DNA of 64,000 bases, from assembly GCA_038046005.1 (NCBI GenBank), contig JBBSXB010000007.1:586-64585 (forward strand). Reading direction: 5' to 3'. This stretch comes from Nanobdellota archaeon (lineage in GTDB: Archaea; Nanobdellota; Nanobdellia; Pacearchaeales; GW2011-AR1). A model generated the notes under the pieces. It saw nothing but the letters and a program-made list of their open reading frames with translations, was not told the DNA's origin and ran no database searches. A program made the position numbers and the translations under genes. Shown here piece by piece: positions 270 to 48,997 of this stretch; within the stretch, counting starts at the first letter, position 1, and each line of letters starts with the position of its first letter.

Positions 270-321
270 AAGTTTTCCAAAACTCTTATAAATGGTGTTA
301 AAGTTTTTTCTTTATAGTGTT

Positions 322-394: not shown

Positions 395-434
395 TTATCT
401 AAATCTTTAAAATATAATCTTTTGTTTCTAAAAT

Positions 435-2381: not shown

Positions 2382-2428
2382 AGTTTTATTATTAAACTGG
2401 CATTTAAAAATCCTAATCTTCCCACATT

Positions 2429-14270: not shown

Positions 14271-17200
14271 GAGAAAAAAACTTTTTAATATTCAGCGTGG
14301 TTTTGTTAGCACTTGCCCTGACAAGTCTCGTTTCTGCTGAATATATGAAATCTGGAGTTCAATATGCAACTCAGGGTGCTATAAGTGGTTTTTTTGGGGG
14401 AGGAACAGCCCCTACAAATTATAATGCTTGTCAGGCTGGCCAGGATTTTATTGTGCAAGTTTCTCCAATCGGTTGCACTCCTGTTCCTGTCAGGAGTGAT
14501 TTGTTACAAGACCAAAATAGTGCGGTTTTCTGTCCTTTGATGGCAACAAAAGTCAATCCTATGGTTAGTGTGAATGCGATAGACAGCATTCAATTTAGGT
14601 TGGACAAAGGATCAGATTATATAACTGGAGTTGACTTTTTGCCGGCTAAGGCTGCTTTGGGGATTAATAATCAATTAAACTCTCCAACTTTACAAAATAT
14701 TGGATATGCTGTTATAGTTTTAAAACAACAAAAAAATTCTTCAAAAATGCCTGATTATGTGAATGGAAGTTTAATTGCAACTATAAGGTATAACATAGAC
14801 AGCGCTTTTGGAGTTGGTGCCACGAGTTTTTATCTTCCAATAATTGCTGATGCCGACTGGAAAAATCAAAGAACAAAATATTCTTTCTTAAACGGGAAAT
14901 TTTATCTTAAAGCAGAAGGGATTGATTCCAGCGGGGCCCAGATTTCAATTTATGACGATACAAGAAGAATTTCAACTTCCAATTTGAATAATGGGCAAAA
15001 ATCTGGAACAATTTCCCTTCCAGGATTTGACTGTTATGGTGGACTTCAACTGAGTCTTAACGGACTTAGTGTTCCTGACACGAGAGCTAGCTTAGATGTT
15101 AATGGGCAGATTTATGAAGCTGCAATAGGAGAAAAGTTTTTTGACAATAAATGTACAGTCAGAGATTTAGGCAAATATGGAGTTTATGAAAGTGCAAGCA
15201 TTAATTGCAATGCTGATAAAAGAGGAGAGAGTTTTGTTTTAACAAAATCTCCTAAAGTTAAACTGGATTTTCCTGGAGCTAAAGAGGATGGTTATAAAGT
15301 TGGTGATTATCTATTCAATTACACAGATAACGGAAAACTAGATAATGGAAAATTAAAAGGAGTTTATTTAGGATTTGTTGGAAGCGTTAATGATTCTAAA
15401 AAAGAGAGTGACCTTTTTGCTATGGTTGTCGAAGTTCCTCAAGTAAAAGAAAAATTAACAAGTGATGAGATTGCAAAAGTTGCCAGATTTGCTGAGTCTT
15501 ATGAACCGCAAAAAGATTTAGTCAGTACTGGAGATTATATGCTCCAACATGGAAAAAGTATTTTTGGGTTTGTAACTGCAGCTATTGACTGGACTGTGGA
15601 AGGAAAAAGTTACCATTATATTAATCCTGCTAAGTCAGATACTATCAATGGTGTAACAGTTTCTTTAATTGGATTTGCAGGAGCAAAAGATTTTGACCTT
15701 TCAACCTTAAACCAAAATATCCAGGATTATTACACAAAAGCAAATGAGGATTATGACAAAATACTTGGAAGTTATTTGAATGAACAAAATGAAAACGGAA
15801 TTAGCTATGGCGAGGCAGCTTTATACAACAAAATGGCTTTGGTAAACAGCTTGAGCCAGAAAAGAACTTTGATTGACCTTTGCGAGCAGTTTAAAGAGAA
15901 TTACCCACAATCACAAAAAAACATAGATTTTTGTGAAAAAGATAAATTAGCAGACAGCGAATTATCCAGTTATTATATCTTGGTTAATGGAAAATTAAAA
16001 CAAATTTCTTTGGATAATGTTTATTCTCCTAAATTTGAGGATTATGGTGCAGAGATACTAATAAATGGAGAAAAATATGATTTCAAGAAAGATGAAGTTA
16101 AGTATTTGGAAGCTGGGCAAACTTCTACTGGAACTTTAGACAAGACTCAATTTACCACTGCTGTAAAAAATACTTTTGGAGCACAATGTTCACAATATGC
16201 TAGTGATGTTTTCGATATTGCAAATAAGTATAGCGTTGATCCTTCAAGATTAATTTCTGTTATGAAAAAAGAGTCCAGCTGCAACGCTGACACTGCAGAT
16301 TCAAGTGCTGGTGCTGTTGGATTGATGCAAATTTCCAGCTGGGATTTGTGCAAAAGTGCGCTAAAAATAAGCAGCTTAGGTGATTTAAGAGGAAAAAATA
16401 ATGTTAACAAAAATATTGAATGTGGAGCAATAATATTGAGTTCTTATTACCAGACTTATGGACAGACTTCGTCTGTATCTTTATATCAAAACAGAGTTAA
16501 ACGATATTGCCAAGATACAAATTATCAAACTAAATATTTGGAGTATCAAAGTTGGGATGCAGCATTAAGAGCTTACAACGGACTTGGGTGTACCCCTCCT
16601 GGTGCTGATGTGAATTATGTTGATGGTGTCAACCAAAATTACAACAACTTAAAGAGCGCAACACCAACTCTTGCAACAACTTCTGGTACTTCTGGAGCAA
16701 AATATGTCAAGCTTGCCGGAATTGGAGAAGATTATGTGGATGTTAGTATCTCTGGATTTTTTGGCACAAAAAGAATCACAAAAGGAGTTGTTGAAGATTT
16801 TGGAACAGGATATACATTTAATCTTCAATCAATCAATTTAAAGAAACTTGCTAAAGTAACTATTAATCCTCAAATACAAAATGCCGGTACTAGTGCAGTT
16901 GTTCCATTCAAGATTGGAATTGAGCAGAGTTTGATAAAATTGTCCCCTGAAAAAACTAAAGAGCAAATAGACAAAGTGAATAATTTAATTTCCAAGTGGC
17001 AGAGTGCTACAAACAAACTTGGAAATGTTGTGCAAGGAATGAATAAAGCATGTTTGGCGACTGGTGGGCTTTTGACTTTGAAGAATTTTCTAAGCGGCGA
17101 AGCGCTTGCAAGAAGCGCTGTCATGAGAAGTTCTGGAGGTTGGTATGAGAAATGCCAGGATTTAGTAAATCAACCTCAGTCTAAATATAAAAATGTTGAT

Positions 17201-20200
17201 GTATGCTTATCTCAAAATGCCGATGCAATAGGCAAAGACGTTAAATCTTATGATGATGCTATAAATAAACAAAATACTGAGATTAAAAAATTAGAAGAAC
17301 CTTATACAAAGACTGGAATTTTAGGGGCCAGAACAATTAATGATGATGATTTCTTAAAAGCTTATTTGGATAATGCTAAGCCAGAGATTACAAAGTGCTT
17401 AAATGACAGATATCCTAATGGAATAGACAATCATGGAAAAATAATCCAAGTTAAAGATTTCATGGCTTCTTTAAACAGCAACACAATATCTATTGGCGAA
17501 GTTAGAAACTTACAACTTAACTGCAGACTTGATGGTGGTTTGTTGGATGGAATGTCTAATAGTGTTTTGAAAAAAAGTGTTATTGATGTTAATACTAATT
17601 CTCAAGTTGTTAAAACAATTGGAGATGCTGAGAGTAGGTTTGGGGTTAAAGCAGATTATGGTGCTTCAAGAAAACTAACAGAAGTTTTAGTAAAAGAAGA
17701 CCAAACACTTTCTCAGATAACAGGAATTAATCCTATTCCATATACTCTTCAACCAGACCAGCTTGCAAGAATATATGTTGATGAAGCAACAAGCAAAACA
17801 TACCTTATTACATTGACTAAAGACTATGTTGTTGATCAAACATATGAAGTTGATAGCTTTGGGAATTTGCAGATGTCACAGGAAAAAAATCCTTTGTCTT
17901 TGAAATTTAAAAAATATGATTCATCAACTTATGCCCATCCTTACAAAAATCCTCAAGTGAGATATTTCGAGACAGATCCTTACAAAGGAATGCCCGCAAT
18001 TGTTCCATTTGATATTGAAAAAGGATGGTATGTTTCTGTTAAACAAACTCTGCCTGTTTTAGGGGGCATTAGAGCTTATGATGAATCCGGAAGAGTGAAT
18101 AGTTTCAATATCTGCAATGTTGGAGAAAATAACTTAGAAGAAAATATGGGTGGAGATGATAAATGCGAATTGATAAATCAAGGAACAGGGCAGCCTTATG
18201 GTCAGGTTTTTGGATTAATAGATTCTGATGCTAAAGTTCTTATTGATAAAGCTGTTGACGCCGTTAGCCAGGCAACCAGAGGTTATGGGGAACCAAAAGT
18301 AAGAATCGGAAAGAATACCTTTGATGTTGGCGAGCCAATGGTTGATATCCCCGATATAAAATGCCAAGACATAATGTCTCCAAGCGATTGCAAAATTTTA
18401 TTTAATGTCTGCGACCCTGTTGTTTGTCCTTCATCAAGGTGCGATTTGGGAGGAAATTATCCTGTAAAAGATGTAATTCAGTCTGGAATTTCTGGAAGCA
18501 TTGCGCTTTGCGCACCAAACTTTGTCGGATTTGGCGGAGATGTTTACATTCCAGTTTGTTTGAGCGGAGTTTATGCTGGAATGGATGGATGGCTTCAAAT
18601 CCAAAAAGCTTATAGAGATTGTCTTCAAAATAGTTTGACTACAGGTCAGCTTACTGGAATTTGCGATGAGATTTACAGCTTGCATAGCTGTGAATTTTTC
18701 TGGAGGCAAGGGCTTCCTATTGCAAAGTATTTGGCTCCTAAAGTAATAGAAACAATTGCAGGACAGAGTGTCAAAGGTGGGGGAGAATATTTAAGTATAA
18801 AGAGTGCATTCGATAATGCTGGAAAGTCTGTTGATTACTTCACGCAATATTATGCTAAAAATTCATTTGCGGCATTCAAAGCAAGAAGCGCTGAACAAGT
18901 TGGAACAGCTGCCTGCAAGAATTTTATATCTATAGCTTATCCAAGCCTGAGCGGTTTTGTCAATGCTTTGACACAGCCAAATTCACCTGCTCAATTTAGC
19001 GGAAGATTTGACGAGATTCCTTACACAACTGCCACAAATCCTCCTCTATCTCAATACAAAGTTTCGTACTTTATTTATGCAGGAAATATAAGGGGAGCTT
19101 ATTATCAGGTTTATTTAAAAGAGGGGGCTGAGAGCTCCTATTACCAAGATGCAGGCAATAGAAGAGTTGTTGCTGATGGCTATCTTGGGGCTGGAGAGAG
19201 AGTTGACCAGACTCCTGACTTTGTAGCACCTTCTGGATATAAACAACTTTGCATAAGAGTCAATGAACAGGAAACTTGCGGATTCAAGCAAGTCTCGACG
19301 GAGTTTGGCGTCAACTATGTGAAAGATTTGTACATGGCACAGCAGGCCAACAATACAAATATTCAGGGAACTAAAGAATGCATATCTGGAAGTCCAAGTT
19401 TGTACTCAGTTTTGAGCCCAAGTGTCGAGGGGGCTGCAAACGAAATTGCAAATCCTGCAATATACAATAGAGGAATCATAAGGATTTGCGCGACAGAAAA
19501 TCCTGGAAGCGGAAGTGATCCTAATTATGGGATAGCTAATAAACAAAGATGGCGTGAGGTTGGAAAATGTGATGACAATATGAAATGCTGGCTCGATTCG
19601 AAAAGTGTTTCAGATGTTATTGATGTAAAAAATATAAGAGAAGGTGTTTTGAATAATACTGCTGCAAATGAATTGGAAAAGTTGATGAATGAGAATGGTT
19701 ATATTAGTGATATAGATTATACAAATCTTATTAACACATTAAGCAAGACAAATGATCCTAATGAGAGAATAAAAGCTGTTGATGGAAATTTACCAAAGGT
19801 CTTTTTGAGCAATAAAAAAGCTGCATTGAACCTGATTAGAGGAGATGCTTATGCCGAGTTGGCGAAAGGATTGTTCTTAATTCCAAAACCTGTGAGCGAT
19901 AATTCTGGAATTGATTTGAGCGGAACGATGGATAATAACCCGCAGGCATCAACATCTCAAGATGAAGATGTTTACAAACAGGAATTAAATGCAATTTCAG
20001 ATGATGCTTTAGAAGATATCAATCGTGAGCTAATTGGAGAGGGTATAGATACAAGTGGTTTGTCTCAAGAAGAAATAATTCAAAAGTATGAAGAAATAAT
20101 TCCTAAACTGACTGGAGGATACATCGACTTTACATTGGAAGAGGGAGGTTTGTCAAATCCAACTACCTCTTATTCTCTTGTAAATGGCCAGTGGAGTTTT

Positions 20201-21943
20201 TCGCTTGGAAGGACTATTTTTTTAGGAAGAACTGACTGGAAAAGTTATTTTGGAGATTATAAATTTAAAGAAGCAAATTTAAACAAACTTATTGGGTATG
20301 AAATTGGAACTTCATTCATGGTTGTTGATCTTAGGAACAAAGATTATGATGGGGCTGTGAAAATATTCTTAGACACTGTAAATTTTGAGAATGGTGCTGA
20401 TGGAACAGCATGTATCTTTGATCAACTTAGGTGTGCAAAATTATCTACTGATGGCGTTGAATTTGGTTTTGGAAATGTTTTTAGATTTAAAGGTGAAATT
20501 GGTAATAAACCTCTTTATTTGAAATTTGTTGAATCTCCCCCTAGCCTGAATGTTGGAAAATGGTATTGGTCCAATGATGGAACAACATATTATCCATTTG
20601 TTATCATTGGTGATAATGGGGCTGCTGCTGTTTCTGGGCCTGGAGATTGGAGTTATTATAAACTTTGGATAATGGATTCTAATTTGTATCTTTTAGCTGG
20701 AGAGAACAAAGACTTTTATGAGGTGGCAAAAATAATTTTCAATTTTAATAGAAAATTAAAATACGACTTTGTTCAGAACAGGCAAATTGAAACACTCAAG
20801 CCTAGTGAGGCTAAACCTGTAATAAGAGAAGATAATATTATAACTTTAGGATTTTCTGACACTTTGAAAAAAGCAGCAGATGCTAAAATAATTAATTCTA
20901 AATGTGCTGATTTTGCTGCTAACATTCTTCAGTCTTCAAAAAATAATAACATTCCTGATCCTTTGCTTTTAGTTGCACTAATGCAAATAGAATCTGGTTG
21001 TGATAAAACAGCCAGTTCGGAAGGAAAGACCTTTAAAAAAGCAGATGGAACAAAATATGTTCTTACTTTTGAACTTGGGGCCTCTTATGGGCTTTTTGAA
21101 ATTAGTGGTAGAACTTGGTGTGGCCAGTTTGGATTACCTCAAGATAGGGTTTCGTGCGTAAAAATGTTATTAGAAACTCCTCCGAAAAATATTGATGTTG
21201 GTGCGGCTATATTAAGCAAGTACTATGGGCAGTATAAAAATGGTGTTACATACAGTAAGTGCAACAGGAAAGTGAAATATTATGAATGGGATGCGGCGCT
21301 AAGAGCTTATAATGGATTTGGGTGTTACAAAGGTGCAGAATATTATGTCGAGAATGTCATGAAGATCTATAACAAGCTCGGGAAGATTGCTGAAGGGAAG
21401 AGTGCTTTAGCCACCAACGAAAAAAAAAATGACGAATTGACTGTGGCAACACTTTCTAAAAATCAATGCGTACAAGCCTTTGATAATTTAAACGATGTTA
21501 GATTTAGTTATGGAAGAAAAAAATTAATTTGGGATGAAAGAGCATATAATCTTGCTTTAGCTAAAAGTAATGATATGTATGAAAGGAATTATTATGATCA
21601 TATCACTCCAGATGGAAAATATTTTTTTATTGATCTGAAGTCTAAATATGGATTTGTCCAAACCGAATATCTTGCTGAAAATATAGCAGCTGCAAGTGTT
21701 TATTCTAATGGTACCTTTGTGCCAGACATGACCTGCAATAAAGCGGTAGATGAGTTTTTGAATAGTCGTGCACATCGTTATTTTCTTCTTTATGTTAATG
21801 CCCCTGCTGGGGCGATAGGTTGTAACAATTATTTTTGCACGTTTTATACTGTTAATCCTGAAGGTTTTGCGACAGGGACAGTTACTTCAGCACAATCAAA
21901 AGAATTCTGGCAAAACGCTCCTTTACAACCTAGGGAAATTTAA
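14267..21943 (+). CDS. giant secreted protein (2,558 aa) with two lytic transglycosylase (SLT) domains and a C-terminal CAP/SCP domain
   Basis: Signal peptide LLALALTSLVSAEY. SLT-like block 1 is at ~16170-16650 (VMKKESSCNAD, GLMQIS, ALRAYNGLGC). SLT-like block 2 is at ~20890-21385 (LMQIESGCDK, GLFEISG, ALRAYNGFGC). A CAP/YkwD-like block is at ~21460-21870 (YYDHITPDG, LAENIA, LNSRAHRYF). Confidence 0.85.
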   Translation: MREKNFLIFSVVLLALALTSLVSAEYMKSGVQYATQGAISGFFGGGTAPTNYNACQAGQDFIVQVSPIGCTPVPVRSDLLQDQNSAVFCPLMATKVNPMVSVNAIDSIQFRLDKGSDYITGVDFLPAKAALGINNQLNSPTLQNIGYAVIVLKQQKNSSKMPDYVNGSLIATIRYNIDSAFGVGATSFYLPIIADADWKNQRTKYSFLNGKFYLKAEGIDSSGAQISIYDDTRRISTSNLNNGQKSGTISLPGFDCYGGLQLSLNGLSVPDTRASLDVNGQIYEAAIGEKFFDNKCTVRDLGKYGVYESASINCNADKRGESFVLTKSPKVKLDFPGAKEDGYKVGDYLFNYTDNGKLDNGKLKGVYLGFVGSVNDSKKESDLFAMVVEVPQVKEKLTSDEIAKVARFAESYEPQKDLVSTGDYMLQHGKSIFGFVTAAIDWTVEGKSYHYINPAKSDTINGVTVSLIGFAGAKDFDLSTLNQNIQDYYTKANEDYDKILGSYLNEQNENGISYGEAALYNKMALVNSLSQKRTLIDLCEQFKENYPQSQKNIDFCEKDKLADSELSSYYILVNGKLKQISLDNVYSPKFEDYGAEILINGEKYDFKKDEVKYLEAGQTSTGTLDKTQFTTAVKNTFGAQCSQYASDVFDIANKYSVDPSRLISVMKKESSCNADTADSSAGAVGLMQISSWDLCKSALKISSLGDLRGKNNVNKNIECGAIILSSYYQTYGQTSSVSLYQNRVKRYCQDTNYQTKYLEYQSWDAALRAYNGLGCTPPGADVNYVDGVNQNYNNLKSATPTLATTSGTSGAKYVKLAGIGEDYVDVSISGFFGTKRITKGVVEDFGTGYTFNLQSINLKKLAKVTINPQIQNAGTSAVVPFKIGIEQSLIKLSPEKTKEQIDKVNNLISKWQSATNKLGNVVQGMNKACLATGGLLTLKNFLSGEALARSAVMRSSGGWYEKCQDLVNQPQSKYKNVDVCLSQNADAIGKDVKSYDDAINKQNTEIKKLEEPYTKTGILGARTINDDDFLKAYLDNAKPEITKCLNDRYPNGIDNHGKIIQVKDFMASLNSNTISIGEVRNLQLNCRLDGGLLDGMSNSVLKKSVIDVNTNSQVVKTIGDAESRFGVKADYGASRKLTEVLVKEDQTLSQITGINPIPYTLQPDQLARIYVDEATSKTYLITLTKDYVVDQTYEVDSFGNLQMSQEKNPLSLKFKKYDSSTYAHPYKNPQVRYFETDPYKGMPAIVPFDIEKGWYVSVKQTLPVLGGIRAYDESGRVNSFNICNVGENNLEENMGGDDKCELINQGTGQPYGQVFGLIDSDAKVLIDKAVDAVSQATRGYGEPKVRIGKNTFDVGEPMVDIPDIKCQDIMSPSDCKILFNVCDPVVCPSSRCDLGGNYPVKDVIQSGISGSIALCAPNFVGFGGDVYIPVCLSGVYAGMDGWLQIQKAYRDCLQNSLTTGQLTGICDEIYSLHSCEFFWRQGLPIAKYLAPKVIETIAGQSVKGGGEYLSIKSAFDNAGKSVDYFTQYYAKNSFAAFKARSAEQVGTAACKNFISIAYPSLSGFVNALTQPNSPAQFSGRFDEIPYTTATNPPLSQYKVSYFIYAGNIRGAYYQVYLKEGAESSYYQDAGNRRVVADGYLGAGERVDQTPDFVAPSGYKQLCIRVNEQETCGFKQVSTEFGVNYVKDLYMAQQANNTNIQGTKECISGSPSLYSVLSPSVEGAANEIANPAIYNRGIIRICATENPGSGSDPNYGIANKQRWREVGKCDDNMKCWLDSKSVSDVIDVKNIREGVLNNTAANELEKLMNENGYISDIDYTNLINTLSKTNDPNERIKAVDGNLPKVFLSNKKAALNLIRGDAYAELAKGLFLIPKPVSDNSGIDLSGTMDNNPQASTSQDEDVYKQELNAISDDALEDINRELIGEGIDTSGLSQEEIIQKYEEIIPKLTGGYIDFTLEEGGLSNPTTSYSLVNGQWSFSLGRTIFLGRTDWKSYFGDYKFKEANLNKLIGYEIGTSFMVVDLRNKDYDGAVKIFLDTVNFENGADGTACIFDQLRCAKLSTDGVEFGFGNVFRFKGEIGNKPLYLKFVESPPSLNVGKWYWSNDGTTYYPFVIIGDNGAAAVSGPGDWSYYKLWIMDSNLYLLAGENKDFYEVAKIIFNFNRKLKYDFVQNRQIETLKPSEAKPVIREDNIITLGFSDTLKKAADAKIINSKCADFAANILQSSKNNNIPDPLLLVALMQIESGCDKTASSEGKTFKKADGTKYVLTFELGASYGLFEISGRTWCGQFGLPQDRVSCVKMLLETPPKNIDVGAAILSKYYGQYKNGVTYSKCNRKVKYYEWDAALRAYNGFGCYKGAEYYVENVMKIYNKLGKIAEGKSALATNEKKNDELTVATLSKNQCVQAFDNLNDVRFSYGRKKLIWDERAYNLALAKSNDMYERNYYDHITPDGKYFFIDLKSKYGFVQTEYLAENIAAASVYSNGTFVPDMTCNKAVDEFLNSRAHRYFLLYVNAPAGAIGCNNYFCTFYTVNPEGFATGTVTSAQSKEFWQNAPLQPREI

Positions 21944-38890: not shown

Positions 38891-40486
38891 CTATCTTTTT
38901 TTCTTTAGTGTAAAGATTATTAATATTATAAGTATGATTATAACAATAACTAACATTATATTCTGCCAGCTCATATGTTCTTCAGATACGACATTAAACC
39001 ATGTGGAACTGCTTGCTGTTTCGTTGTCATAGTTTGCTTTGGCCTGTAGAATATAGTTTCCTAACTTTGCAGAAGATGGGATTTTTATTTCTTTTACAAA
39101 ACTTGTCTGGGTTTCTACGGCGATGCTTTCATCTTCCCTTGAAATGATATTTTCGTCCATGTCTTTGATTGTGTAGGTTACTTCTGTATCAACTCTGCCT
39201 GTTTTACCCAAGCTGAATATTTGTATATTTGCAAAGATTTCTCCGCCAGGTGCTACGTTTAGGAATGCTTTAGGTATTTCTATTTTCAAATCAAACAAAG
39301 CTTTTTTGGAGCTGACATCAATAGCCATTAAAATTTCTTTTTTCATACTCTCTGTGCTTATAATTATTTTACCAAGATATAAACCCGGAGCAGTAGTTAC
39401 TCTTGCCAGAAGGTATAATGGAATTGTTTTTGATTCGCCAGGATTTAAAACAACCATATCTTCTCCTCTTACTACAAAATCGGTAAAGAGATTTTCTATT
39501 TCAACTTTTATAGTCTGACTTCCTGGATTGGTTATTATGATTTCTTCTGTTTTAACCTCTCCTTGCTTCAATTTTATAGTTATCTTTTCTTGGTCTAGCG
39601 TGAAATTGTCTGAGGCTTTTTGTGCGCTGCCTCCTCCACCTCCAGAGGAACTTACTACTGAGCCTGTTTGAGAACTGGCTGGTGTTTCTTCTGTGGTGTA
39701 AGTTGAAAATTGAGTTACAGTGAAAGTTAATATTCCGTTAGAATAACTTTGTGTGGAACAAATTGATGCAGGACAAACTGCTCCATCTTTTAAAATTCTT
39801 GGATTTGTAAATATTAAATTATATAGAGTTAGAGTTGCGGATTTGTTTAAGTTTGGAAGGGCTGTTGAATTTATTTCTATTCTATTGAATGAGATGTTTG
39901 TGTTGGTGTCTAAATCAAGTTCACTGTCGCTTGAGTTTAAATCGTCCGTCAAATTTATCAGCTCATCAAAGTGGATTTTTCCATAATCAGTCTTTTCTAA
40001 AACTAGACCATTAAGATCTTGGATTTCATTGTAGCCGGAAATATTCAAGTTGGTTGAATTTCCCTTGTAGAGTCCTGAAAATTCTTCATAATGTACCGTA
40101 AATTTAGAAAGATTTACAAAGAAACTTACGTTTTTTGCTGTAAGTCCATAGGTGTTATTTGCATATAGATAAATGGTGTGACTTCCAGAACTTACGTTAA
40201 AATAAGTTGAAGACGTGATTGTCGTATTTGCAGAATTGTCTATATTGTAGAATATGTAACTCGCATAACGAGATGTGAAATTTAATAAAAGAGACTGGTT
40301 GTTAAAGTAAGTATCATTTTTTGGAGTTATTATTGTCAATTCTGGAGGACCGACAACGCTTATGTTTATGGCCACGTTCGAGCTGACTGCTTCTCCAACA
40401 GGCTTCCCTCTTTCAGCTATCCTCATAGAAACCAGTATTAAAAGAAGCAATAAAATTGAGCATCCAAATACCACCCATCTTTTCAT
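38891..40486 (-). CDS. surface protein (531 aa) with poly-Gly linker, beta-sandwich domains and C-terminal TM anchor
   Basis: Signal peptide, sequon-rich N-terminal half, a SSSGGGGGS linker, then two CARDB-like segments (NPGESKTIPLYL; SSAKLGNYIL) and the TM helix LVIVIIILIILIIF with a KKKR tail. The C-terminal architecture matches that of the 1,521-aa protein. Confidence 0.75.
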   Translation of the reverse strand: MKRWVVFGCSILLLLLILVSMRIAERGKPVGEAVSSNVAINISVVGPPELTIITPKNDTYFNNQSLLLNFTSRYASYIFYNIDNSANTTITSSTYFNVSSGSHTIYLYANNTYGLTAKNVSFFVNLSKFTVHYEEFSGLYKGNSTNLNISGYNEIQDLNGLVLEKTDYGKIHFDELINLTDDLNSSDSELDLDTNTNISFNRIEINSTALPNLNKSATLTLYNLIFTNPRILKDGAVCPASICSTQSYSNGILTFTVTQFSTYTTEETPASSQTGSVVSSSGGGGGSAQKASDNFTLDQEKITIKLKQGEVKTEEIIITNPGSQTIKVEIENLFTDFVVRGEDMVVLNPGESKTIPLYLLARVTTAPGLYLGKIIISTESMKKEILMAIDVSSKKALFDLKIEIPKAFLNVAPGGEIFANIQIFSLGKTGRVDTEVTYTIKDMDENIISREDESIAVETQTSFVKEIKIPSSAKLGNYILQAKANYDNETASSSTWFNVVSEEHMSWQNIMLVIVIIILIILIIFTLKKKR

Positions 40487-40516: not shown

Positions 40517-41098
40517 CTATTGCGATTGTTTTTTCACTTGCTTTTTGGCTTTCATTACAAGGAAGAATATTATAATCACAACTATCAAAATAGCGATTAT
40601 CAACCATATTGCAGTGTTAGTTGTTTCTTTTGGCTGTTCTTTTGGAGTTGCTGAAGTGTTTACGCCTTGGCTTATCACCACTATAGGTATGTTTGTCGTG
40701 AAACCGCTTGCAACCTGTACCATTTGACCTGAGCCGGAAGCAATTTGCTGGAAGGATACAGTTACTGTGTAAGAATCTCCCGCTTTTGCGTTTGAAGGAA
40801 TGTCTATTTTAACATTTACAGGAACATCATCCTTTCCAAAAGGGACAAAGTAATTCAGATTTTTGTCAATCAAAGTGGCCACTCCTGCATTGTTTGTCAA
40901 ATTTGCGATTAGCGTTATATCTTCATTCCCAACCATATTCTGGAGCGTCAGTGCAACTGTTTTTGATTCTCCAGGAGTCATTGTCAATGGATCGCTAGCC
41001 CAGTATGGTGTTACAACTCCTGAAGCGCTGGCATATGAAATTGCTAGAATTCCAAAGAGGAATAACAATCCAATTTTTGTGTATTTTGTGTTTATCAT
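40517..41098 (-). CDS. small surface protein with C-terminal TM anchor
   Basis: Signal peptide, one beta-sandwich-like domain (TPGESKTVALTLQN...AKAGDSYTVTVSF), and the TM helix WLIIAILIVVIIIFFLV with a basic tail. Confidence 0.65.
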   Translation of the reverse strand: MINTKYTKIGLLFLFGILAISYASASGVVTPYWASDPLTMTPGESKTVALTLQNMVGNEDITLIANLTNNAGVATLIDKNLNYFVPFGKDDVPVNVKIDIPSNAKAGDSYTVTVSFQQIASGSGQMVQVASGFTTNIPIVVISQGVNTSATPKEQPKETTNTAIWLIIAILIVVIIIFFLVMKAKKQVKKQSQ

Positions 41099-41105: not shown

Positions 41106-42038
41106 TTATGCTACTGCAACACTCCAAGCACCATACGCAGATGACGAATATGATTGCTGGCTTATTGATGGGGGAAGCCCTTTAAGGCAGAAATAAATCT
41201 GTTCCTGCCCCGATGTCTCATTATTGTTATTTATAGAATTGTTCCCTTTGAATAATATAGACGAAGTGACATTTGTCGATGTTGCGTTAACCATTGCTGT
41301 TCCCGTACATCCTTGCGAGGTATTTTCAACTGTGAAATTTGCAGCATATATAAAGTCAGTAATTGTCGTTTCACCTCTAAGGTTGTATGATGTAACGTTG
41401 ACACTTAGCGCATTTGCATTACCTGTATTGTTAACGATGATTGGATCATTATTTGAACCAACATCTGTGTCGGTAGATGAAAGTGTCTGCCATGTCATTG
41501 CTGTTGGAGACATTGCCATTGCCGTAAGCAAATTGTAGGTGAAAGTTGGTGTTGAATTTGTAGCGTACCCTCCATTTTTATCAGTTATTGTTGTGTTGAC
41601 TGTCCATGCACCATTCACATCATAATAGTACATGTTTATAGTGCATGTAAAATTAATATTATTTCCTACACCAACAGAAAGATTTATGCAAGAAGTATTT
41701 GATCTTGTGGTTTCGCTTGCTTTCTGAAAATAGGCTGTTGCGGTGCTCGTGTTAATGTTCGAAGCTCCGTCAGTGTCTGTTGCGGTGAAATTAAAAGTTA
41801 TTGACTTTGTTGTTGATTCTGTCGGGTTTTGTGCAGAGATTGCATTAACTATTGGGATTGTTGGGGCTGAATTTCCCAAAGTAATGTTTAGTGTTGTGGT
41901 GCTGCTTGTTGCAAATCCAGTTATCTCTGCTACTTTGTTAAAAAAGTTAGTATGATTTAAAACCAATATTAAGAATATCAGCAGAACAGCTCCAGCAATA
42001 AAATACACTCCTCCTTTACCCATCAAGGTTTTAGTCAT
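41106..42038 (-). CDS. truncated paralog (310 aa) of the C-terminal extracellular part of the 1,501-aa surface protein
   Basis: It has its own N-terminal anchor (VYFIAGAVLLIFLILVL). From APTIPIVNAISAQ onward it is homologous to the upstream large gene, including 422 nt of perfect identity. Confidence 0.7.
   Translation of the reverse strand: MTKTLMGKGGVYFIAGAVLLIFLILVLNHTNFFNKVAEITGFATSSTTTLNITLGNSAPTIPIVNAISAQNPTESTTKSITFNFTATDTDGASNINTSTATAYFQKASETTRSNTSCINLSVGVGNNINFTCTINMYYYDVNGAWTVNTTITDKNGGYATNSTPTFTYNLLTAMAMSPTAMTWQTLSSTDTDVGSNNDPIIVNNTGNANALSVNVTSYNLRGETTITDFIYAANFTVENTSQGCTGTAMVNATSTNVTSSILFKGNNSINNNNETSGQEQIYFCLKGLPPSISQQSYSSSAYGAWSVAVA
41124..41545. repeat. 422-bp perfect direct repeat, copy 1 (in the 310-aa gene)
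   Basis: Identical base for base, compared by eye, to 42645-43066 (offset 1,521 bp). The flanks are diverged and mosaic. Confidence 0.9.
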
Positions 42039-42047
42039 TTTTCCTTT

Positions 42048-45000
42048 TTAAATATTATTGTTATTCAGCTTCTTTGCCGCCCTTGCATAAATTGTCCATA
42101 TGTTCCTTTGGTCTCTTGAAAGCAGACTGGCTATCTCAACAAATTTCATTTGTTTGGCTTTTAGGTATACAACGAGAGATTCTAATGTGGTTAAGTTTTT
42201 GTTCTTGAAAATTTCTATTGGAATTTTTGCCCCTTCTTTAACATCAAAAGGTTCTTTTTGCTTTTTCACTGACTTTTTGTAAGAAGTCCAAATGGTTCTT
42301 TCATCTCTTCCTATCATATCTGAAATCTCTTTGTAGTTCATGTTTAGATTTTCTTTCATGTATTTGACAATCGTCTCTAAACCTCCAAGGTTTTTTGAGA
42401 ATATTGTTGCAGGTATGTTCACTTCTTTAGTATTGTTCAGTATTTCTACAATCTCTTTTTTGCTTATCTTGTGTTTTTCTTTTAGCTTGTCAATTATAAT
42501 GTTGACCATTTCCTTCTTATTCAAGGAATATTCTTCCTTTAACTCTTCTAAAATAAGTTCAAGTGCTTCTATTAATTTGTCATCTTTTACATTTTTCTTC
42601 TTCTTTTTTCTTGGAATCAACAAGACCAAACTTATTCTTATAACCCAAGCACCATACGCAGATGACGAATATGATTGCTGGCTTATTGATGGGGGAAGCC
42701 CTTTAAGGCAGAAATAAATCTGTTCCTGCCCCGATGTCTCATTATTGTTATTTATAGAATTGTTCCCTTTGAATAATATAGACGAAGTGACATTTGTCGA
42801 TGTTGCGTTAACCATTGCTGTTCCCGTACATCCTTGCGAGGTATTTTCAACTGTGAAATTTGCAGCATATATAAAGTCAGTAATTGTCGTTTCACCTCTA
42901 AGGTTGTATGATGTAACGTTGACACTTAGCGCATTTGCATTACCTGTATTGTTAACGATGATTGGATCATTATTTGAACCAACATCTGTGTCGGTAGATG
43001 AAAGTGTCTGCCATGTCATTGCTGTTGGAGACATTGCCATTGCCGTAAGCAAATTGTAGGTGAAAGCTTCTGAAGAATTTTCAACATATAATCCGGTGTT
43101 ATCCTGAACGGTAGCATTTATTGTCCATGCGCCATTCAAATCAAAATACCACATGTCTATTGTGCATGTAAAATTAATATCGTTTCCAGAGGCGGCTGTT
43201 TGATTTATACAAGAAGTATTTGATCTTGTTGTTTCCCCTGCTTTTTGAAAATATGCTCTTGCAGTGCTTATGTTCACAGTTGATCCTCCATTCAAATCTG
43301 TTGCAGTGAAATTAAAAGTTATTGACTTTGTTGTTGATTCTGTTGGGTTTTGTGCAGAGATTACATTAACTATTGGGATTGTTGGGGCTACTTGGCTGAT
43401 TATATTAACAACAAAACTATTGTTCAATCCAAGATTATTTGCAGAATCATTTGCATAAACATTTATTATTTTATTGCCATCCGCAAGATTTGTTAAAGGT
43501 ATAGATGTGGTGTTACACCATCCATTAGAAACAGCCAGCGTTGTATTTGTTCCGTTCACTTCAATATTACAGAAACTAGGGGGGGTTGTTGCGTCAATTA
43601 CAGAGATATTCAACGTTAGAGTATCTGTGTTTTGCTTTTGGGTGGCATTTGTGTAGACTGGCAAAGTAATTGTCGGTGCTGTTGTGTCAATCCAGACTGC
43701 ATAAGAATTATTTAAAGCCAAATTTCCAGCACTATCGTTGGCGTAAGCATTTATTGTCTGATTTCCGTCTGCAATTCCCGTCAATGCATAAGTTCCGTTG
43801 CACCATCCACCAGATGCTGCAACTGTCTGGTTTGCATTGCCATTTACATTTATCGAGCAGTATGAAGCCCCAACTCCTACGTCTGAGATTGATAAATTGA
43901 ATGTCAGGCTTTGGGTGTTTTGTTTTTGAGTTGCGTTCGTGTAAACTGGCAAGGTTATTGTTGGTGCTGCGTTTTGGATTGTGTAAGCTTGTAAAGTTGT
44001 AACATTCCAATTATTTGATGAATCGTTTGCGTATTGTTTCCACCCTATTGTTTTTCCTTCGCATTCATTTGGCACTGTCCAGCTCATGTTACTCCAGTTA
44101 GTTGTTCCTGCAAAAGTTGAGTTTATTGTGACATTTGCAAGAGTGTTACAGCTTGCGCCTGTGGAATTAATCTCTAAAATCACATAACTTAGCTGAGTGT
44201 CGTCTGTCCAATTTGTGTTGTGCGAAACTGTTGAGCCTGGAAGAGGGTTTGAGTCGTTTGTCAAGGGATTGCTATAATTTGGGGCTGCTACATCTGGATC
44301 AGGCGTTGTTTTATTGACTACAAAATCATCAACCCATAAATTTTCTCCGGAGCCAAGAACTGCGTTGAATCTTACTCTAAAATTGGACTTGAAATATTGG
44401 CTGTCAGATGTAGTGAAACTTACCCATTGCCAGGTGTCTTCTGTTCCGCTTTCAAGGGATTCAGTTATTGCGTCATAAGCTGAGCCGTCAAAGAAATAAA
44501 AGTCTATATCTGTTGCATCTAAATCATCATCCATAAACCAAAAACTCACATTTATGAATGTTGCATCGCTAGTGTCAATGTCGTCTGTTATTAAATCGCC
44601 CTCATTTCCATTAGAAGCCAGCACAGATTGTGCTCCTGCATGTTTTTGCGCTGTTGATATATCCCAAGTCGTAGCACCATTCCCATCCCATTTAGCTAAA
44701 GCAGACTCAAAATCATCTGAAAATATACTAGTAATCGGATCAACTATATAATCAAATTCGATACTTCCTCCAACAACTTTTAAGTCAAATGTGTCTTGAG
44801 AACTTTGCAAGTTTGTTAAGAATATTTTATTATCTTGGTTCGAATTTATCGAGGAGAATTCTGCAATCTTTGTTGTTTGATTTAATTCATAGACCTCAAT
44901 CCTTGGATTTCCAGAGATTACTCTTGGAAATAGAGTTATATCATTTTCTGAAGTTAAATTTTTTTCAAATGTAACTCTTACATAATCTTGATTTGAGATT

Positions 45001-46553
45001 TCTTCACTCCATACATTGTCAAGAGTTTTTACTTGATCGTAAATATTGGAGATGAAAGTTTTATCTTTGTATAAATGTTCAGCCTTGGTTATCACGATAA
45101 TATCAAAGGTCTGGTTTGAAAGATGAGGAACAATCCATTCAATGTAATCATAAATTCCATTTCCATCTTTATCTTGGACATTTTCTGGAGAGATATAGGC
45201 ATTTTGCTCTTCCCAGAAGATTTTTACTGTCGAAGGATTTTTTATGTTTAAATTTTCGCTGAGATTAGCAAAAGCCAAGACATCAGTGTAGTGGACATTA
45301 TCTGGCGAGGAAATTTTTATTTTTTTCCCTCTCGAGATTTGTTCTTCTACAACAGATGGAGCAGGAGTTTCATAACTTATTTCATAGTCTCCTGGATTAT
45401 CTTGAATTGTTACCTCTTTATCTTGAGCTAGATTGTCAACGTTAAACTTAGTTTTTCCCCCTTGCGAGTTTAATGTTTCTATCTTTTCTGCTTCTTTTGG
45501 AATTTTGACATTTGGATTTTTTTCTTCAGCAATAAATCTTTTTGTCCATTTTACTGGCTGACCTAAAATCGCTCTGCTTTGGGTTGTTGTTATCCTTTCT
45601 TCAGCAATGGTGTTATTTTTTTCTGAAGTTATGTTTGTTTCTGGCGTGATATTGGTTTTTGGCTCTTCCTGAATAATTTCTTTCAGCGTTTGATACTTGG
45701 CTGATTCTAAAAATAATTCTGCGTTGTCTATCTCAATCCTTAAATTGTAAGAAGTTTTGCTGAGATTCAATCCTGTGAGGTCGCAAGTTTCTTCACAGAT
45801 GTTTGCAAATTTTTTTGTCATTTCTTTTTCGATTATGTTAACTTGGCTTTCATTTCCTTTTTCAGTTTGGTCTTGCGAGACGTTAGTTGTGTTTTCAGAG
45901 GAAGGAGACTCCCCTTGGAAAGGACTCGACTCGTTTGAATCATTTTGAGGAGTCTCATTTATTCCTTCTGAATTTGAAATTGATGCACCTGTGATATAGT
46001 CTGTTTCTTTTATTTTTGTACTATCTAGAATTAACAAATTATCAAGATAAATTTTAACTGAGCCCTTTACTTTTATTAATCCGCTTAGTTTTAGATATCC
46101 AAGTTGCCCAAAATTTTCTGGCTTCCATTCATAATTTGTTGATTCATTAAAATTTATATTTAGAGTCTGGCTAAATTCCTGATTTTGAACATTTGGCTGA
46201 GCAAAAAATCCTGTCAATCCGGGCTTAAAATAAAAAATTGTTAAAGATAAAATACCTAGAATCAATATAAAAACAAAAAAGTTAAAACTAAACCTTTTGT
46301 GCGTATGTTTTTTTATATGTCTTTCAGAATAGCCGATAAAGTGATCATAATGGTGAATTAACTCTTGGATATTTCTTCCATTGTGCTTTTTGTGCGAGAT
46401 TTCTAGATACTCTGCTTGAGAGATTTTTCCTTTTGAACAAGCTTCATTTAACTCTAAAATATAGTTTTGGAGTTTTTCTTTTCCGACTTTTGCAACCTTT
46501 AATGCTTTTTTGTACTCTTCTATTGGGGCTTTTGCTAGTCGAGTCTTTTCCAT
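42048..46553 (-). CDS. 1,501-aa surface protein: N-terminal cytoplasmic segment and TM, DxFES module, tandem Ig-like repeats, then a C-terminal double HTH tail
   Basis: N-terminal TM helix FNFFVFILILGILSLTIFYF and a long sequon-rich ectodomain. After ...SAYGAW comes a short hydrophobic stretch VIRISLVLLIP plus KKKKK, then two HTH repeats (LETIVKYMKENLNMNYKEISDMIGRDERTIWTSY and LESLVVYLKAKQMKFVEIASLLSRDQRNIWTIY). Confidence 0.8.
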   Translation of the reverse strand: MEKTRLAKAPIEEYKKALKVAKVGKEKLQNYILELNEACSKGKISQAEYLEISHKKHNGRNIQELIHHYDHFIGYSERHIKKHTHKRFSFNFFVFILILGILSLTIFYFKPGLTGFFAQPNVQNQEFSQTLNINFNESTNYEWKPENFGQLGYLKLSGLIKVKGSVKIYLDNLLILDSTKIKETDYITGASISNSEGINETPQNDSNESSPFQGESPSSENTTNVSQDQTEKGNESQVNIIEKEMTKKFANICEETCDLTGLNLSKTSYNLRIEIDNAELFLESAKYQTLKEIIQEEPKTNITPETNITSEKNNTIAEERITTTQSRAILGQPVKWTKRFIAEEKNPNVKIPKEAEKIETLNSQGGKTKFNVDNLAQDKEVTIQDNPGDYEISYETPAPSVVEEQISRGKKIKISSPDNVHYTDVLAFANLSENLNIKNPSTVKIFWEEQNAYISPENVQDKDGNGIYDYIEWIVPHLSNQTFDIIVITKAEHLYKDKTFISNIYDQVKTLDNVWSEEISNQDYVRVTFEKNLTSENDITLFPRVISGNPRIEVYELNQTTKIAEFSSINSNQDNKIFLTNLQSSQDTFDLKVVGGSIEFDYIVDPITSIFSDDFESALAKWDGNGATTWDISTAQKHAGAQSVLASNGNEGDLITDDIDTSDATFINVSFWFMDDDLDATDIDFYFFDGSAYDAITESLESGTEDTWQWVSFTTSDSQYFKSNFRVRFNAVLGSGENLWVDDFVVNKTTPDPDVAAPNYSNPLTNDSNPLPGSTVSHNTNWTDDTQLSYVILEINSTGASCNTLANVTINSTFAGTTNWSNMSWTVPNECEGKTIGWKQYANDSSNNWNVTTLQAYTIQNAAPTITLPVYTNATQKQNTQSLTFNLSISDVGVGASYCSINVNGNANQTVAASGGWCNGTYALTGIADGNQTINAYANDSAGNLALNNSYAVWIDTTAPTITLPVYTNATQKQNTDTLTLNISVIDATTPPSFCNIEVNGTNTTLAVSNGWCNTTSIPLTNLADGNKIINVYANDSANNLGLNNSFVVNIISQVAPTIPIVNVISAQNPTESTTKSITFNFTATDLNGGSTVNISTARAYFQKAGETTRSNTSCINQTAASGNDINFTCTIDMWYFDLNGAWTINATVQDNTGLYVENSSEAFTYNLLTAMAMSPTAMTWQTLSSTDTDVGSNNDPIIVNNTGNANALSVNVTSYNLRGETTITDFIYAANFTVENTSQGCTGTAMVNATSTNVTSSILFKGNNSINNNNETSGQEQIYFCLKGLPPSISQQSYSSSAYGAWVIRISLVLLIPRKKKKKNVKDDKLIEALELILEELKEEYSLNKKEMVNIIIDKLKEKHKISKKEIVEILNNTKEVNIPATIFSKNLGGLETIVKYMKENLNMNYKEISDMIGRDERTIWTSYKKSVKKQKEPFDVKEGAKIPIEIFKNKNLTTLESLVVYLKAKQMKFVEIASLLSRDQRNIWTIYARAAKKLNNNNI
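42645..43066. repeat. 422-bp perfect direct repeat, copy 2 (in the 1,501-aa gene)
   Basis: Identical to 41124-41545. The identical antisense shadow ORFs 41224-41538 and 42745-43059 in the ORF track confirm it. Confidence 0.9.
43389..43967 (-). repeat. tandem in-frame repeat, 2 x ~96 aa (APTITLPVYTNATQKQNT... units)
   Basis: Units 43680-43967 and 43389-43679 both start with APTITLPVYTNATQKQNT and share conserved Cys and N-x-S/T positions. A third APTI-initiated unit follows and forms the start of the region shared with the 310-aa paralog. Confidence 0.8.
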
Positions 46554-46626
46554 ACTTATTATGTATGTATTAAAACTTATAAATGTATGTAAAAATATTA
46601 AAAATACTTATTATGTGTGTATTAAA
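46552..46626. repeat. 23-nt direct repeat ATACTTATTATGT(A/G)TGTATTAAA x2 in the divergent intergenic region
   Basis: Copies at 46552-46574 (overlapping the start codon of the 1,501-aa gene) and 46604-46626, with one mismatch. Confidence 0.75.
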
Positions 46627-46641
46627 TGTATGGGCCAAAAA

Positions 46642-46686
46642 TTTGTAGTGCCTACAAAAGATTTAAATAGTTTTTTGTAGTGCCTA
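46642..46686 (+). promoter_or_regulatory. glyS promoter: TATA box (46661-46670) bracketed by two TTTGTAGTGCCTA repeats
   Basis: The 13-mer occurs at 46642-46654 (extended to the palindrome TTTGTAG-TGC-CTACAAA) and at 46674-46686. ATTTAAATAG between them lies ~25 nt upstream of the ATG at 46691. Confidence 0.55.
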
Positions 46687-46690
46687 ATGA

Positions 46691-48400
46691 ATGTTTGTTG
46701 TTAAAAAAAATATCAAAGGCGGGGAATACTACTACCTCAATGAAAACAAAAGAGTTGGGGGAAAAGTAAAAACGAAGAGTTTGGCTTATCTTGGTAAAAA
46801 TAAAAAAGAAGCAATTAAAAAGGCAAATGAAATCATGGATTCAATGAAAAAAGAAACTGAAAAAGAGATTGTCGTTACACCTGAACCTGAAAAAGAAATT
46901 AAAGTCGGCAAAAAAATAGACGAGATAAATAAAATTGCGACCAGCAGAGGTTTTTTCTTCCAGACTGCAGAAATTTACGGAGGAAATGCAGGATTTTATA
47001 CTTACGGTCATTTAGGGAAGCTCTTAAAAATTAATTGGGAAAATTTATGGAGAAAACATTTTCTTTCCTTAGATGACAATTTCCATGAGATTCAAAGCAA
47101 CAATATTCTTCCGGAAGCGGTGTTTAAGGCCTCTGGACATTTGGAAAATTTTAATGATCCTATGACGGAATGCAAGAAATGCCGTTTTAGATTTAGGGCC
47201 GATCAGTTTTTGGAAGATAATGGGGTTGGGGAAGCTGAGAAACTTTCAATTGAGGAAATGAGCAATGTTATTCGTGAAAAAAAACTAAAATGTCCAAAGT
47301 GTGGGGGAGAGCTTGGAGAGGTCAAACAATTTAACATGATGTTTTCTGTTAATGTCGGATTTAATGATGAGAAATCCTACTTAAGTCCAGAAACAGCACA
47401 AGGAGCTTACATAACCTTTTTGAATGAATTCAAGGCCACGAGGGGAAAACTTCCTTTAGGTTTGGCCATAATTGACAAGGCTTACAGAAATGAAATTTCT
47501 CCAAGACAAATGTTTTTTAGACTCAGGGAATTTTCACAAGCAGAATTGCAGATATTTTTTGATTCAAACAAAATTGATGAGCATGATAAATGGAAAGATG
47601 TGGCAAAGAAAATTTTGCGAGTTAAATTGGCGAAAGATAAAGATATAGGGGAAAAAAGCTGTGAAAATTTGCATAAAGATGGAATTCCAAAATTTTATGT
47701 CTACTATTTGGCAAAAGTTCAAGAGTTCTATTTAGACATTCTAATGATTCCTAAGGAAAAATTTAGATTTAGGGAACTTGGAAAAGAAGAAAGAGCTTTC
47801 TACAATAAAATTCATTTTGATGTTGAGGTTGATTTGGAAACTTTTGGCGGATTCAGGGAAGTTGGGGGAATTCATTATAGGGGAGAACATGATTTAATCG
47901 GCCATGCCAAGATTTCTGGAAAAAATTTTGAGGTTTTTTATGACGGGAAAAAAGTTTTGCCACATGTTTTAGAGTTAAGCTTTGGGGTTGACAGGAATAT
48001 TTGGACTTTGTTAGATATTTTTTACAGAGTTGGTAAAGATGGGAGTATGTTCTCATTTCCAACAACTATATCTCCAATAAAAGCCGCAGTCTTTCCGATT
48101 GTTAAGAGGGATGATTTTGAAAAAATGGCCGATGAAATTGTTTCTGATCTTGGGAAAGAGTCTAAAATTGTCTACGATAAAGGTGGAAGTATTGGAAGAA
48201 GATACGCCAGAAACGACGAAATTGGAACACCTTTTTGCATAACAATAGATGAAGAGTCATTAAAAGGAAAAGATGTGACTATAAGAGAAAGAGATACAAC
48301 AAAACAGATTAGAGTTAAGATTGCGGATTTGAAAAATTCACTGAAAAAAATTGTCGACGGTGATTTAGAATTCGAAAAAGCGGGAAAAATTTTCAAATAG
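46691..48400 (+). CDS. glyS: glycyl-tRNA synthetase (archaeal/eukaryotic class II type) with a ~75-aa N-terminal extension
   Basis: The core starts at SRGFFFQTAEIYGGNAGFYTYGHLG. Class II motifs (RNEISPR, GVDR) and a C-terminal anticodon-binding domain are present. Confidence 0.9.
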   Translation: MFVVKKNIKGGEYYYLNENKRVGGKVKTKSLAYLGKNKKEAIKKANEIMDSMKKETEKEIVVTPEPEKEIKVGKKIDEINKIATSRGFFFQTAEIYGGNAGFYTYGHLGKLLKINWENLWRKHFLSLDDNFHEIQSNNILPEAVFKASGHLENFNDPMTECKKCRFRFRADQFLEDNGVGEAEKLSIEEMSNVIREKKLKCPKCGGELGEVKQFNMMFSVNVGFNDEKSYLSPETAQGAYITFLNEFKATRGKLPLGLAIIDKAYRNEISPRQMFFRLREFSQAELQIFFDSNKIDEHDKWKDVAKKILRVKLAKDKDIGEKSCENLHKDGIPKFYVYYLAKVQEFYLDILMIPKEKFRFRELGKEERAFYNKIHFDVEVDLETFGGFREVGGIHYRGEHDLIGHAKISGKNFEVFYDGKKVLPHVLELSFGVDRNIWTLLDIFYRVGKDGSMFSFPTTISPIKAAVFPIVKRDDFEKMADEIVSDLGKESKIVYDKGGSIGRRYARNDEIGTPFCITIDEESLKGKDVTIRERDTTKQIRVKIADLKNSLKKIVDGDLEFEKAGKIFK

Positions 48401-48595
48401 TTATTTTGCGTAAGACTTTTAAACTTTGATTTCTTAACTAAATTACTTTAACAAGTAAATTCAAATAAATAAGAGGTGAAAAATGGCAAAGAAAAAAGTT
48501 GGAAAGAAAAAGAAGAGATAATATCTCTAATTATTTTTATTTTTATTTTTTAATTATATCAAAACTTTTTTAAGTCTTATTCTGCTTTATATTTT

Positions 48596-48997
48596 ATGGT
48601 TGATTGTGTTTTTTGCAAGATAGCTGAGAAGGAAATTCCGTCTGAAAAGATTTACGAGAATAAAAGCTTTTTTTCTATATATGACCATAAACCCGAAGTT
48701 GAAGGACATGCTCTGATAATATCTAAGAAACATTTTGAAACTGTGCTAAATCTTCCAGACACTCTTGGAAAACAGTTAATTGATGCTATAAAACATACGA
48801 CTCTTGTCTTAATTAAGAAATATTCTCTGAAGGGATTTGATGTCATTAGCAACAATATGAAGGTCGGTGGACAGGCTGTGCCTCATGTGCATTTTCATAT
48901 AATTCCTAGGAGAGAGGGAGATAGTTTTAGGGCGTGGAATCTTAAGGAAAGAATAAAGGGGTTCAATAAAAGTATGATTCTCTCGGAGGATAAATAA
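48596..48997 (+). CDS. HIT family (histidine triad) protein
   Basis: CVFCKI at the N-terminus and HVHFHIIPR (HxHxHxx). Confidence 0.85.
   Translation: MVDCVFCKIAEKEIPSEKIYENKSFFSIYDHKPEVEGHALIISKKHFETVLNLPDTLGKQLIDAIKHTTLVLIKKYSLKGFDVISNNMKVGGQAVPHVHFHIIPRREGDSFRAWNLKERIKGFNKSMILSEDK

Follow-up and report, generated by a model that had tools for sequence, protein, structure and literature searches.

Recurrent gene conversion as the probable source of a 422-bp exact repeat shared by a giant surface-protein gene and its small secreted neighbour in DPANN archaea

A stretch of 64,000 nucleotides from a Nanobdellota archaeon (GCA_038046005.1, contig JBBSXB010000007.1, positions 586 to 64,585; here called the window) contains a gene for a giant membrane-anchored surface protein of 1,501 amino acids (aa) and, directly downstream, a gene for a small secreted protein of 310 aa. 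The two share a segment of 422 bp that is identical base for base. This identity is best explained by recurrent gene conversion, and hence concerted evolution, between two old, functional and co-oriented genes of one operon, a reading to which we give a probability of roughly 85%. Both genes lie on the minus strand, a correction to an earlier reading of the sequence by itself (the initial annotation). DPANN archaea are believed to be attached to host cells in life; no part of their small genomes is understood less, or evolves faster, than their surface proteins. The mechanism, classical gene conversion, is known; the example and the uncharacterised gene pair are new. As the mechanism is textbook, what is of value here is the example and the operon rather than any new principle. 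In the literature searched, no paper describing the pair or its conversion was found, and nothing specific turned up on this protein family or on gene conversion in DPANN archaea. The features on which the argument depends are as follows.

42048-46553, minus strand: large surface-protein gene, 1,501 aa, defined by its open reading frame (ORF) and translation; homologues of 1,200-3,000 aa share its layout
41106-42038, minus strand: small gene, 310 aa, complete and conserved, made up of a leader, a two-domain module and then SVAVA and the stop codon
42645-43066, minus strand: large-gene copy of the 422-bp repeat; its last residue is the final one before the hydrophobic/basic anchor
41124-41545, minus strand: small-gene copy of the 422-bp repeat, the second module domain from the FTYN motif through ...GAW; synonymous divergence (dS) 0
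41546-41783, minus strand: core of the first module domain in the small gene, old and unconverted; partner 43067-43304, ~70% identical (rates taken from codons 41544-41783)
41784-41868, minus strand: near-identical 5' end of the module in the small gene; partner 43305-43389
42048-42644, minus strand: unique tail of the large gene, with a hydrophobic stretch of ~13 aa, RKKKKK and two helix-turn-helix units of sigma-70 region-4 type
41869-42038, minus strand: unique leader of the small gene, with n-region, hydrophobic helix and linker

The two copies of the repeat are offset by 1,521 bp and cannot be extended at either end. They belong to a longer homology of 745 bp (41124-41868 against 42645-43389) that has no insertions or deletions (indels) and 72 mismatches, all confined to bases 1-323 of the coding strand. 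In 200,000 randomisations of the positions of the 72 mismatches, the longest stretch without a mismatch had a mean of 47 bp and a maximum of 155 bp, compared with the 422 bp observed. Nei-Gojobori estimates of dS and of nonsynonymous divergence (dN), made in the correct reading frame, differ sharply along the homology:

41784-41867, 84 bp, the 5' end: dS 0.10, dN 0.016, 3 differences
41544-41783, 240 bp, the middle: dS 0.93, dN 0.26, dN/dS 0.27
41124-41543, 420 bp, the 3' end: dS 0 over 97 synonymous sites, dN 0

The values for the middle segment indicate an old divergence under purifying selection, and the presence of three levels of divergence inside 745 bp rules out a single duplication as the source. 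Judged from the sequence, the mosaic fits an old divergence overwritten by at least two transfers, the latest of them very recent; the 5' end of the module probably marks a separate, older conversion tract. The boundaries of the recent tract are abrupt: it starts at the FTYN motif, which is near-invariant in the family, and stops where the homology itself stops.

It is extremely improbable that the small gene was newly copied from the 3' module of the large gene and that its diverged part reflects relaxed selection. The copies do lie side by side in one orientation and without indels, as such an origin would have it, but orthologues of the small gene, its leader included, occur across the clade, the middle segment has diverged for long under purifying selection, and the sequence between the copies is not duplicated. 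A recent tandem duplication with uniform divergence was also considered and was rejected: only 745 bp of the 1,521-bp period are homologous, the 776 bp between the copies are unique and divergence is strongly uneven. No inverted repeats or invertible element were found in 36-46 kb of the window.

The small gene had been taken in the initial annotation for a truncated paralogue, and this description has to be given up. It is a complete ORF that starts 9 nt past the stop codon of the large gene, and its leader is signal-peptide-like and without an equivalent in the large gene. When the window protein was aligned with 21 relatives, every sequence stopped a few residues past ...G(A/S)W, so that the end after ...GAW is the usual one for the family. 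A word-index search returned 155 relatives of the small gene, mostly of 296-320 aa, from genomes of Nanoarchaeota, Pacearchaeota and ‘Woesearchaeota’. A profile search (E <= 0.001) returned 1,649 representatives at 50% identity, 682 of them with E <= 1e-30, from DPANN Nanoarchaeota/Pacearchaeota; these comprise both small proteins and large proteins carrying the module near or at the C-terminus. The AlphaFold2 model of the small protein has two beta-sandwich domains with a mean predicted local distance difference test score (pLDDT) of 79, and a fold search with this model gave only generic immunoglobulin (Ig)/Fab fold matches (antibodies, nanobodies) and nothing functional. For a few module loci the bin carries the label Patescibacteria, Bacillota or Coxiellaceae, probably through mis-binning.

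When one genome per species was scanned, 77 loci were found (related loci and contigs are given L numbers here), and most of those with enough flank carry two same-strand copies of the module, typically 1.5-1.9 kb apart. One copy is part of a large ORF that usually continues into a tail of ~145-270 aa, and the other is part of an ORF of ~300 aa that has a leader of ~57 aa and ends ~5 aa past the module. The duplication is old, since the large-then-small pair recurs in dozens of genomes. The initial annotation had suggested a comparison with the same region in related genomes, and the paralogue proves to be present there.

The modules within a genome are usually each other's closest relatives. 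Measured against all copies elsewhere, the partners of an adjacent pair were mutual nearest relatives in 28 of 45 pairs for the second domain and in 21 of 45 for the first. Between genomes, copies of the same type (large with large, small with small) are no more alike than copies of different type: 40.1 vs 39.3% identity in the first domain and 43.5 vs 43.1% in the second. The signal that should distinguish large from small has therefore gone from the module, while the flanks are still type-specific. Long exact tracts of 107-734 bp within pairs occur in nine other genomes as independent occurrences. They measure 329 bp (L002), 381 bp (L032), 403 bp (L074), 287 bp (L065) and 734 bp (L051), and those of 155, 128, 107 and 129 bp are found in L006, L021, L020 (a single-cell genome) and L082, respectively. 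The homogenised segment differs from genome to genome, being the second domain in the window (100% identical) and, in two of its closest relatives, the second domain in L002 (93%) and the first domain in L082 (92% DNA identity). The gene-conversion reading of the initial annotation is thus well supported by the run of dS values (0.10, 0.93 and 0 from 5' to 3'), which supplies the comparison of synonymous divergence inside and outside the identical block that it had recommended, by the age of the pair and by the closeness of partners within genomes. The basic observations also stand as it gave them, namely the 422-bp identity at its 1,521-bp offset, the diverged middle and the near-identical stretch of about 80 bp.

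We envisage the following course of events. Homologous recombination would copy a stretch of one module, in either case two Ig-like domains, onto the other. In the window a very recent and non-reciprocal conversion would have copied the stretch that begins with the FTYN motif, at the boundary of the domains, and runs as far as the homology does, and so left the 422-bp identity, an older event would have left the near-identical 84 bp at the 5' end, and the diverged middle would be a remnant of the old divergence. Repeated events of this kind, touching different domains in different genomes, would make the modules evolve in concert while the unique flanks stay distinct. The small gene was probably the donor of the 422-bp tract. 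The hint comes from a small sample: the shared second domain of the window is closer to the small copy of L082 than to its large copy (74 vs 67%), and the corresponding values for L002 are 70 and 67%.

Several points weigh against this reading or limit it. The direction of transfer rests on ~30 sites. Median protein identity within pairs is 65-68% and many pairs are unhomogenised, so homogenisation is sporadic and not obligatory, and a neutral or opportunistic process is to be favoured over a strict functional requirement; no result here points to homogenisation having been selected. The four assemblies described below are all short-read and come from one population, and copies that are truly ~98-99% identical could have been rounded to 100% by bubble-popping during assembly, so that the identity is very high but perhaps not quite perfect. 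Assemblies are also consensus sequences, beneath which deletion variants of low frequency are possible.

The pair belongs to a larger operon, the two downstream members of which are as follows.

40517-41098, minus strand: p193, with a signal peptide, an Ig-like domain and a C-terminal membrane anchor
38891-40486, minus strand: p531, with a signal peptide, beta-rich domains and a C-terminal membrane anchor; weak match to the MG2 domain

Gene order was counted over 79 loci, these being 78 fetched loci and the window. Tail-like sequence is present in 68, p193 lies just downstream of the small gene in 70 and p531 is found in 53; the order large-small-p193-p531 is conserved and recurs in dozens of genomes. 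The gene for glycyl-tRNA synthetase (GlyRS) is frequently upstream of the operon in divergent direction. These counts define a conserved surface operon of four genes, which encode the giant protein with its helix-turn-helix tail, its small secreted paralogue and the two anchored proteins, and which homologous recombination reshapes through concerted evolution of the module and through changes in copy number. Three copies of the module are present in L038 and four in L070, a variation consistent with unequal crossing-over in the module array.

Locus L050 contains an exact direct repeat of ~1.35 kb (~170-1520 vs ~1834-3184, period 1,664 bp). It duplicates the entire small gene and the start of p193 and is either a recent tandem duplication or an expansion introduced by assembly.

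Comparison with L002 places the converted module in a fast-evolving surface island. DNA identity is ~87% over 43648-48658, falls to ~69% or becomes undetectable from ~43650 down to ~38600, and then rises to ~80%. The stretch of low identity takes in the 3' third of the large gene, with its last Ig repeats, module and tail, and then the small gene together with p193 and p531. Conserved housekeeping genes flank the island.

Both copies of the repeat, at the offset of 1,521 bp, are carried exactly by three further assemblies, L001 (ERZ1292625), L080 (ERZ1292619) and L079 (GCA_964356645.1), which stem from the same groundwater population as the window; over the two copies, all four assemblies agree without a difference. 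The 90% cluster of the large protein (P0241) has four members of 1,501 aa and two unrelated fragments of 31 aa; a fusion of ~1,308 aa, the length expected if the repeat recombined with itself, is not among its members. The structure is therefore reproducible, and a deletion form is not seen at the consensus level.

These assemblies bear first on whether the repeat might have been created or homogenised by short-read assembly, the copies being in reality not identical or not both present. Such an artefact has a very small chance of being the explanation. It is true that the window belongs to a metagenome-assembled genome with ~12-13x coverage according to the contig names, that a repeat of 422 bp exceeds any assembly k-mer and that the short contigs of L026 and L050 show possible collapse or expansion. 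However, the four assemblies (three from separately assembled samples or replicates and one more) agree over 21 kb, with unique sequence between the copies. Two copies are also the usual layout in dozens of genomes that many studies have supplied, single-cell genomes included, and partial homogenisation with exact tracts of varied length appears in independent data sets.

Across the 16-21 kb compared, the window differs from the other three assemblies of its population only in two clusters of single-nucleotide polymorphisms (SNPs), at 44487-44513 and 44970-45006, and in one SNP at 45434. Both clusters are in the large gene, where they correspond to about residues 516-528 and 681-689 of the protein. 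In L001, a stretch of 37 bp contains 8 changes, among them a +1/-1 pair of indels that offset each other. The rest of the window yielded no donor sequence for these clusters.

The repeat could also act in another way. Its offset of 1,521 bp corresponds to 507 codons, so recombination between the copies would delete in frame, and the predicted recombinant joins residues 1-1303 of the large protein (...GAW) to SVAVA and the stop codon to give a protein of 1,308 aa. The tail of the large gene and the leader of the small one would both be lost. The initial annotation had calculated such a deletion, and its arithmetic is correct as to the length of 1,521 bp, the end ...GAWSVAVA and the removal of the tail and the N-terminus of the small protein. 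The 1,308-aa product is itself plausible, as the family commonly has large proteins that stop directly behind the module. A further suggestion, that the locus could exist in two forms within the population, receives no direct support: all four assemblies have the full form and the protein cluster lacks a member of 1,308 aa.

Elsewhere, two contigs resemble the recombinant. In L026 (JBBTWD010000015.1) the large gene (219-3671) matches the large copy of L020 to ~3260 and the small copy of L020 beyond. The crossover falls near 3233-3263, at the domain boundary, and there is neither a tail nor a small gene, p193 being next. As far as its sequence goes, this is exactly the layout predicted for the recombinant, and a true deletion allele or a collapsed assembly would be equally good readings of it; the contig is only 4.2 kb long, which leaves room for collapse by the assembler. 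L058 (large gene 2-3022) has the same layout on a contig of 4.7 kb with ~4x coverage. P0094, a close homologue of the small gene from locus L081 that was checked in connection with L026, belongs to another lineage and is ~94% identical. The locus should be regarded as prone to repeat collapse in short-read assemblies.

From these observations one might conclude that the direct repeat is a programmed or selected switch between an anchored, tailed form accompanied by the small protein and a tail-less fusion of 1,308 aa, or that the small gene supplies the large one with donor sequence for antigenic variation, as a cassette would. In favour of this are the in-frame deletion, which gives the C-terminal end usual in the family, the common occurrence of large proteins without anything behind the module, the recombination of large and small copies in L026 as compared with L020, the same layout in L058, the variable copy number (three in L038, four in L070, the 1.35-kb tandem duplication in L050) and the position of the locus in a fast-evolving island. 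We nevertheless consider such a role quite unlikely. The full form is present in four of four assemblies of the population without a cluster member of fusion length, and L026 and L058 are short contigs (the latter at ~4x) of the kind in which an assembler would collapse the repeat. Most tail-less large genes retain a small gene downstream. The window holds only two copies of the module, the small gene is complete and conserved and not silent, and conversion makes copies alike and generates no variants. In our view the 1,521-bp deletion is mechanically possible through the direct repeat and would be an occasional by-product, not a programmed switch.

The closest parallels to the conversion proposed here are cases of concerted evolution by intrachromosomal gene conversion, such as the babA/babB adhesins of Helicobacter pylori, tufA/tufB of Salmonella and the thermosome (chaperonin) paralogues of archaea. 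In common with these are the two functional paralogues per genome, the mosaic identity with abrupt tract boundaries, the greater likeness of paralogues within a genome than of orthologues between genomes and the retention of unique flanks. In contrast to them, one partner here is a module within a giant, multi-domain membrane protein and the other is a small secreted protein that stands by itself, encoded in the same operon at a distance of 1.5 kb; the process extends through a whole uncultivated DPANN lineage, and the domain that is homogenised varies by genome.

Cassette systems of antigenic variation, such as pilE/pilS of Neisseria, vlsE of Borrelia and msp2 of Anaplasma, likewise involve a surface-protein gene, segmental and non-reciprocal transfer from a nearby homologue and fast evolution between strains. 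In the window, however, there is a single partner and no archive of cassettes, and by its sequence this partner is complete, conserved and probably expressed. The outcome is homogenisation rather than diversification, with no heterogeneity among the four consensus assemblies. The setting of antigenic variation in which the initial annotation had placed the repeat is accordingly unlikely, with two copies of the module in the 64-kb window, a conversion that homogenises and four assemblies that are identical. A silent-cassette system was rejected on the copy number and on the completeness and conservation of the partner ORF with its leader.

Diversity-generating retroelements are common in DPANN organisms and in those of the candidate phyla radiation (CPR), and they too have two nearby repeats, one of them in the 3' part of a surface gene, and a variable block. 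Here the repeat is far longer than a template/variable pair and both copies are coding and in frame. A retroelement of this type was rejected since each of the 12 substitution types occurs among the mismatches and adenines are not favoured. No reverse transcriptase was found among the 7 genes scanned around the locus, a scan that took in only part of the ORFs of the window.

The N-terminal part of the large protein has a charged region followed by a hydrophobic segment near residues 92-110. The middle part is a long region rich in N-X-S/T that bears Ig-like repeats, and it leads to the two-domain module (about residues 1052-1303). After the module comes WVIRISLVLLIP-RKKKKK and then the tail of ~185 aa. 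Directly before the shared module, whose own start is APTIPIVN, are two adjacent and diverged Ig-like repeats (window ~43390-44060, residues ~832-1050), each beginning APTITLPVYTNATQKQNT.

The short hydrophobic stretch and the basic cluster are kept in ~50 homologues and would form a stop-transfer anchor that places the tail in the cytoplasm. Slippage at a homopolymer in the lysine run was rejected, as the DNA there contains no long homopolymer. The tail has no counterpart in the small gene. In isolation it scores 26.2 bits against Pfam Sigma70_r4_2, at the threshold (cutoff 25.7), and it is modelled as two three-helix units with pLDDT 85-93. The model of module plus tail has a mean pLDDT of 55 and is poor except in the first domain and the helix-turn-helix units; a fold search with it gave only generic Ig-fold matches (antibodies, nanobodies) and nothing functional, and a search of the tail sequence against solved structures gave nothing significant. 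Sigma70_r4_2 was the only sigma-70 region matched, and in the tail alone; region 2 was not found. The idea that the tail is a full sigma factor was rejected, as the match is of region-4 type only.

Several large homologues are named ‘DNA-directed RNA polymerase specialized sigma24 family protein’ in databases, a label that they owe solely to the region-4-type tail. Unexplained sigma-70 annotations have been noted in Woesearchaeota (Castelle et al. 2021; PMC8204110). The proteins described here resemble them in that the tail matches Sigma70_r4_2 and homologues are annotated as ‘sigma24 family protein’. They differ in having only the region-4-type helix-turn-helix, twice, behind the hydrophobic/basic anchor of a giant surface protein, and in that the tail of tail-less variants sits on a separate ORF just upstream. 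Some of the sigma-70 annotations in Woesearchaeota, perhaps family fam00359 of that paper among them, may be surface-protein tails of this kind, and our results suggest that in these archaea such tails are what at least part of the ‘sigma24/sigma-70’ labels in databases refer to.

Some large genes end 5-9 residues past the module, and a separate tail-like helix-turn-helix ORF is usually found just upstream of them; most of these genes also keep a separate small gene downstream. The upstream ORF abuts the tail-less large gene in L029, L046, L055, L062, L066 and L074; in L032 it is farther off, ~1.8 kb upstream of the large ORF. This pattern of fusion and fission ties the helix-turn-helix protein to the surface protein.

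A joint functional reading can be put together from these elements, though as a whole we regard it as unlikely. The small secreted protein may pair, in the manner of a Fab, with the identical membrane-proximal module of the giant protein, and the helix-turn-helix tail may make the giant protein a membrane-tethered transcription regulator of these episymbiotic archaea. Conversion may then keep the partners matched amid the fast evolution of the surface island, and recombination at the repeat may now and then remove tail and small gene together, the layout of L026 and L058, to give a heritable on/off change in signalling.

Two further giant ORFs are present in the window, both on the plus strand.

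14267-21943, plus strand: ORF of 2,558 aa
34024-38589, plus strand: ORF of 1,521 aa, convergent with the operon, with matches to the Ig-like Big_13 domain

Relatives of the 1,521-aa ORF lie near the operon in 22 of the 79 loci.

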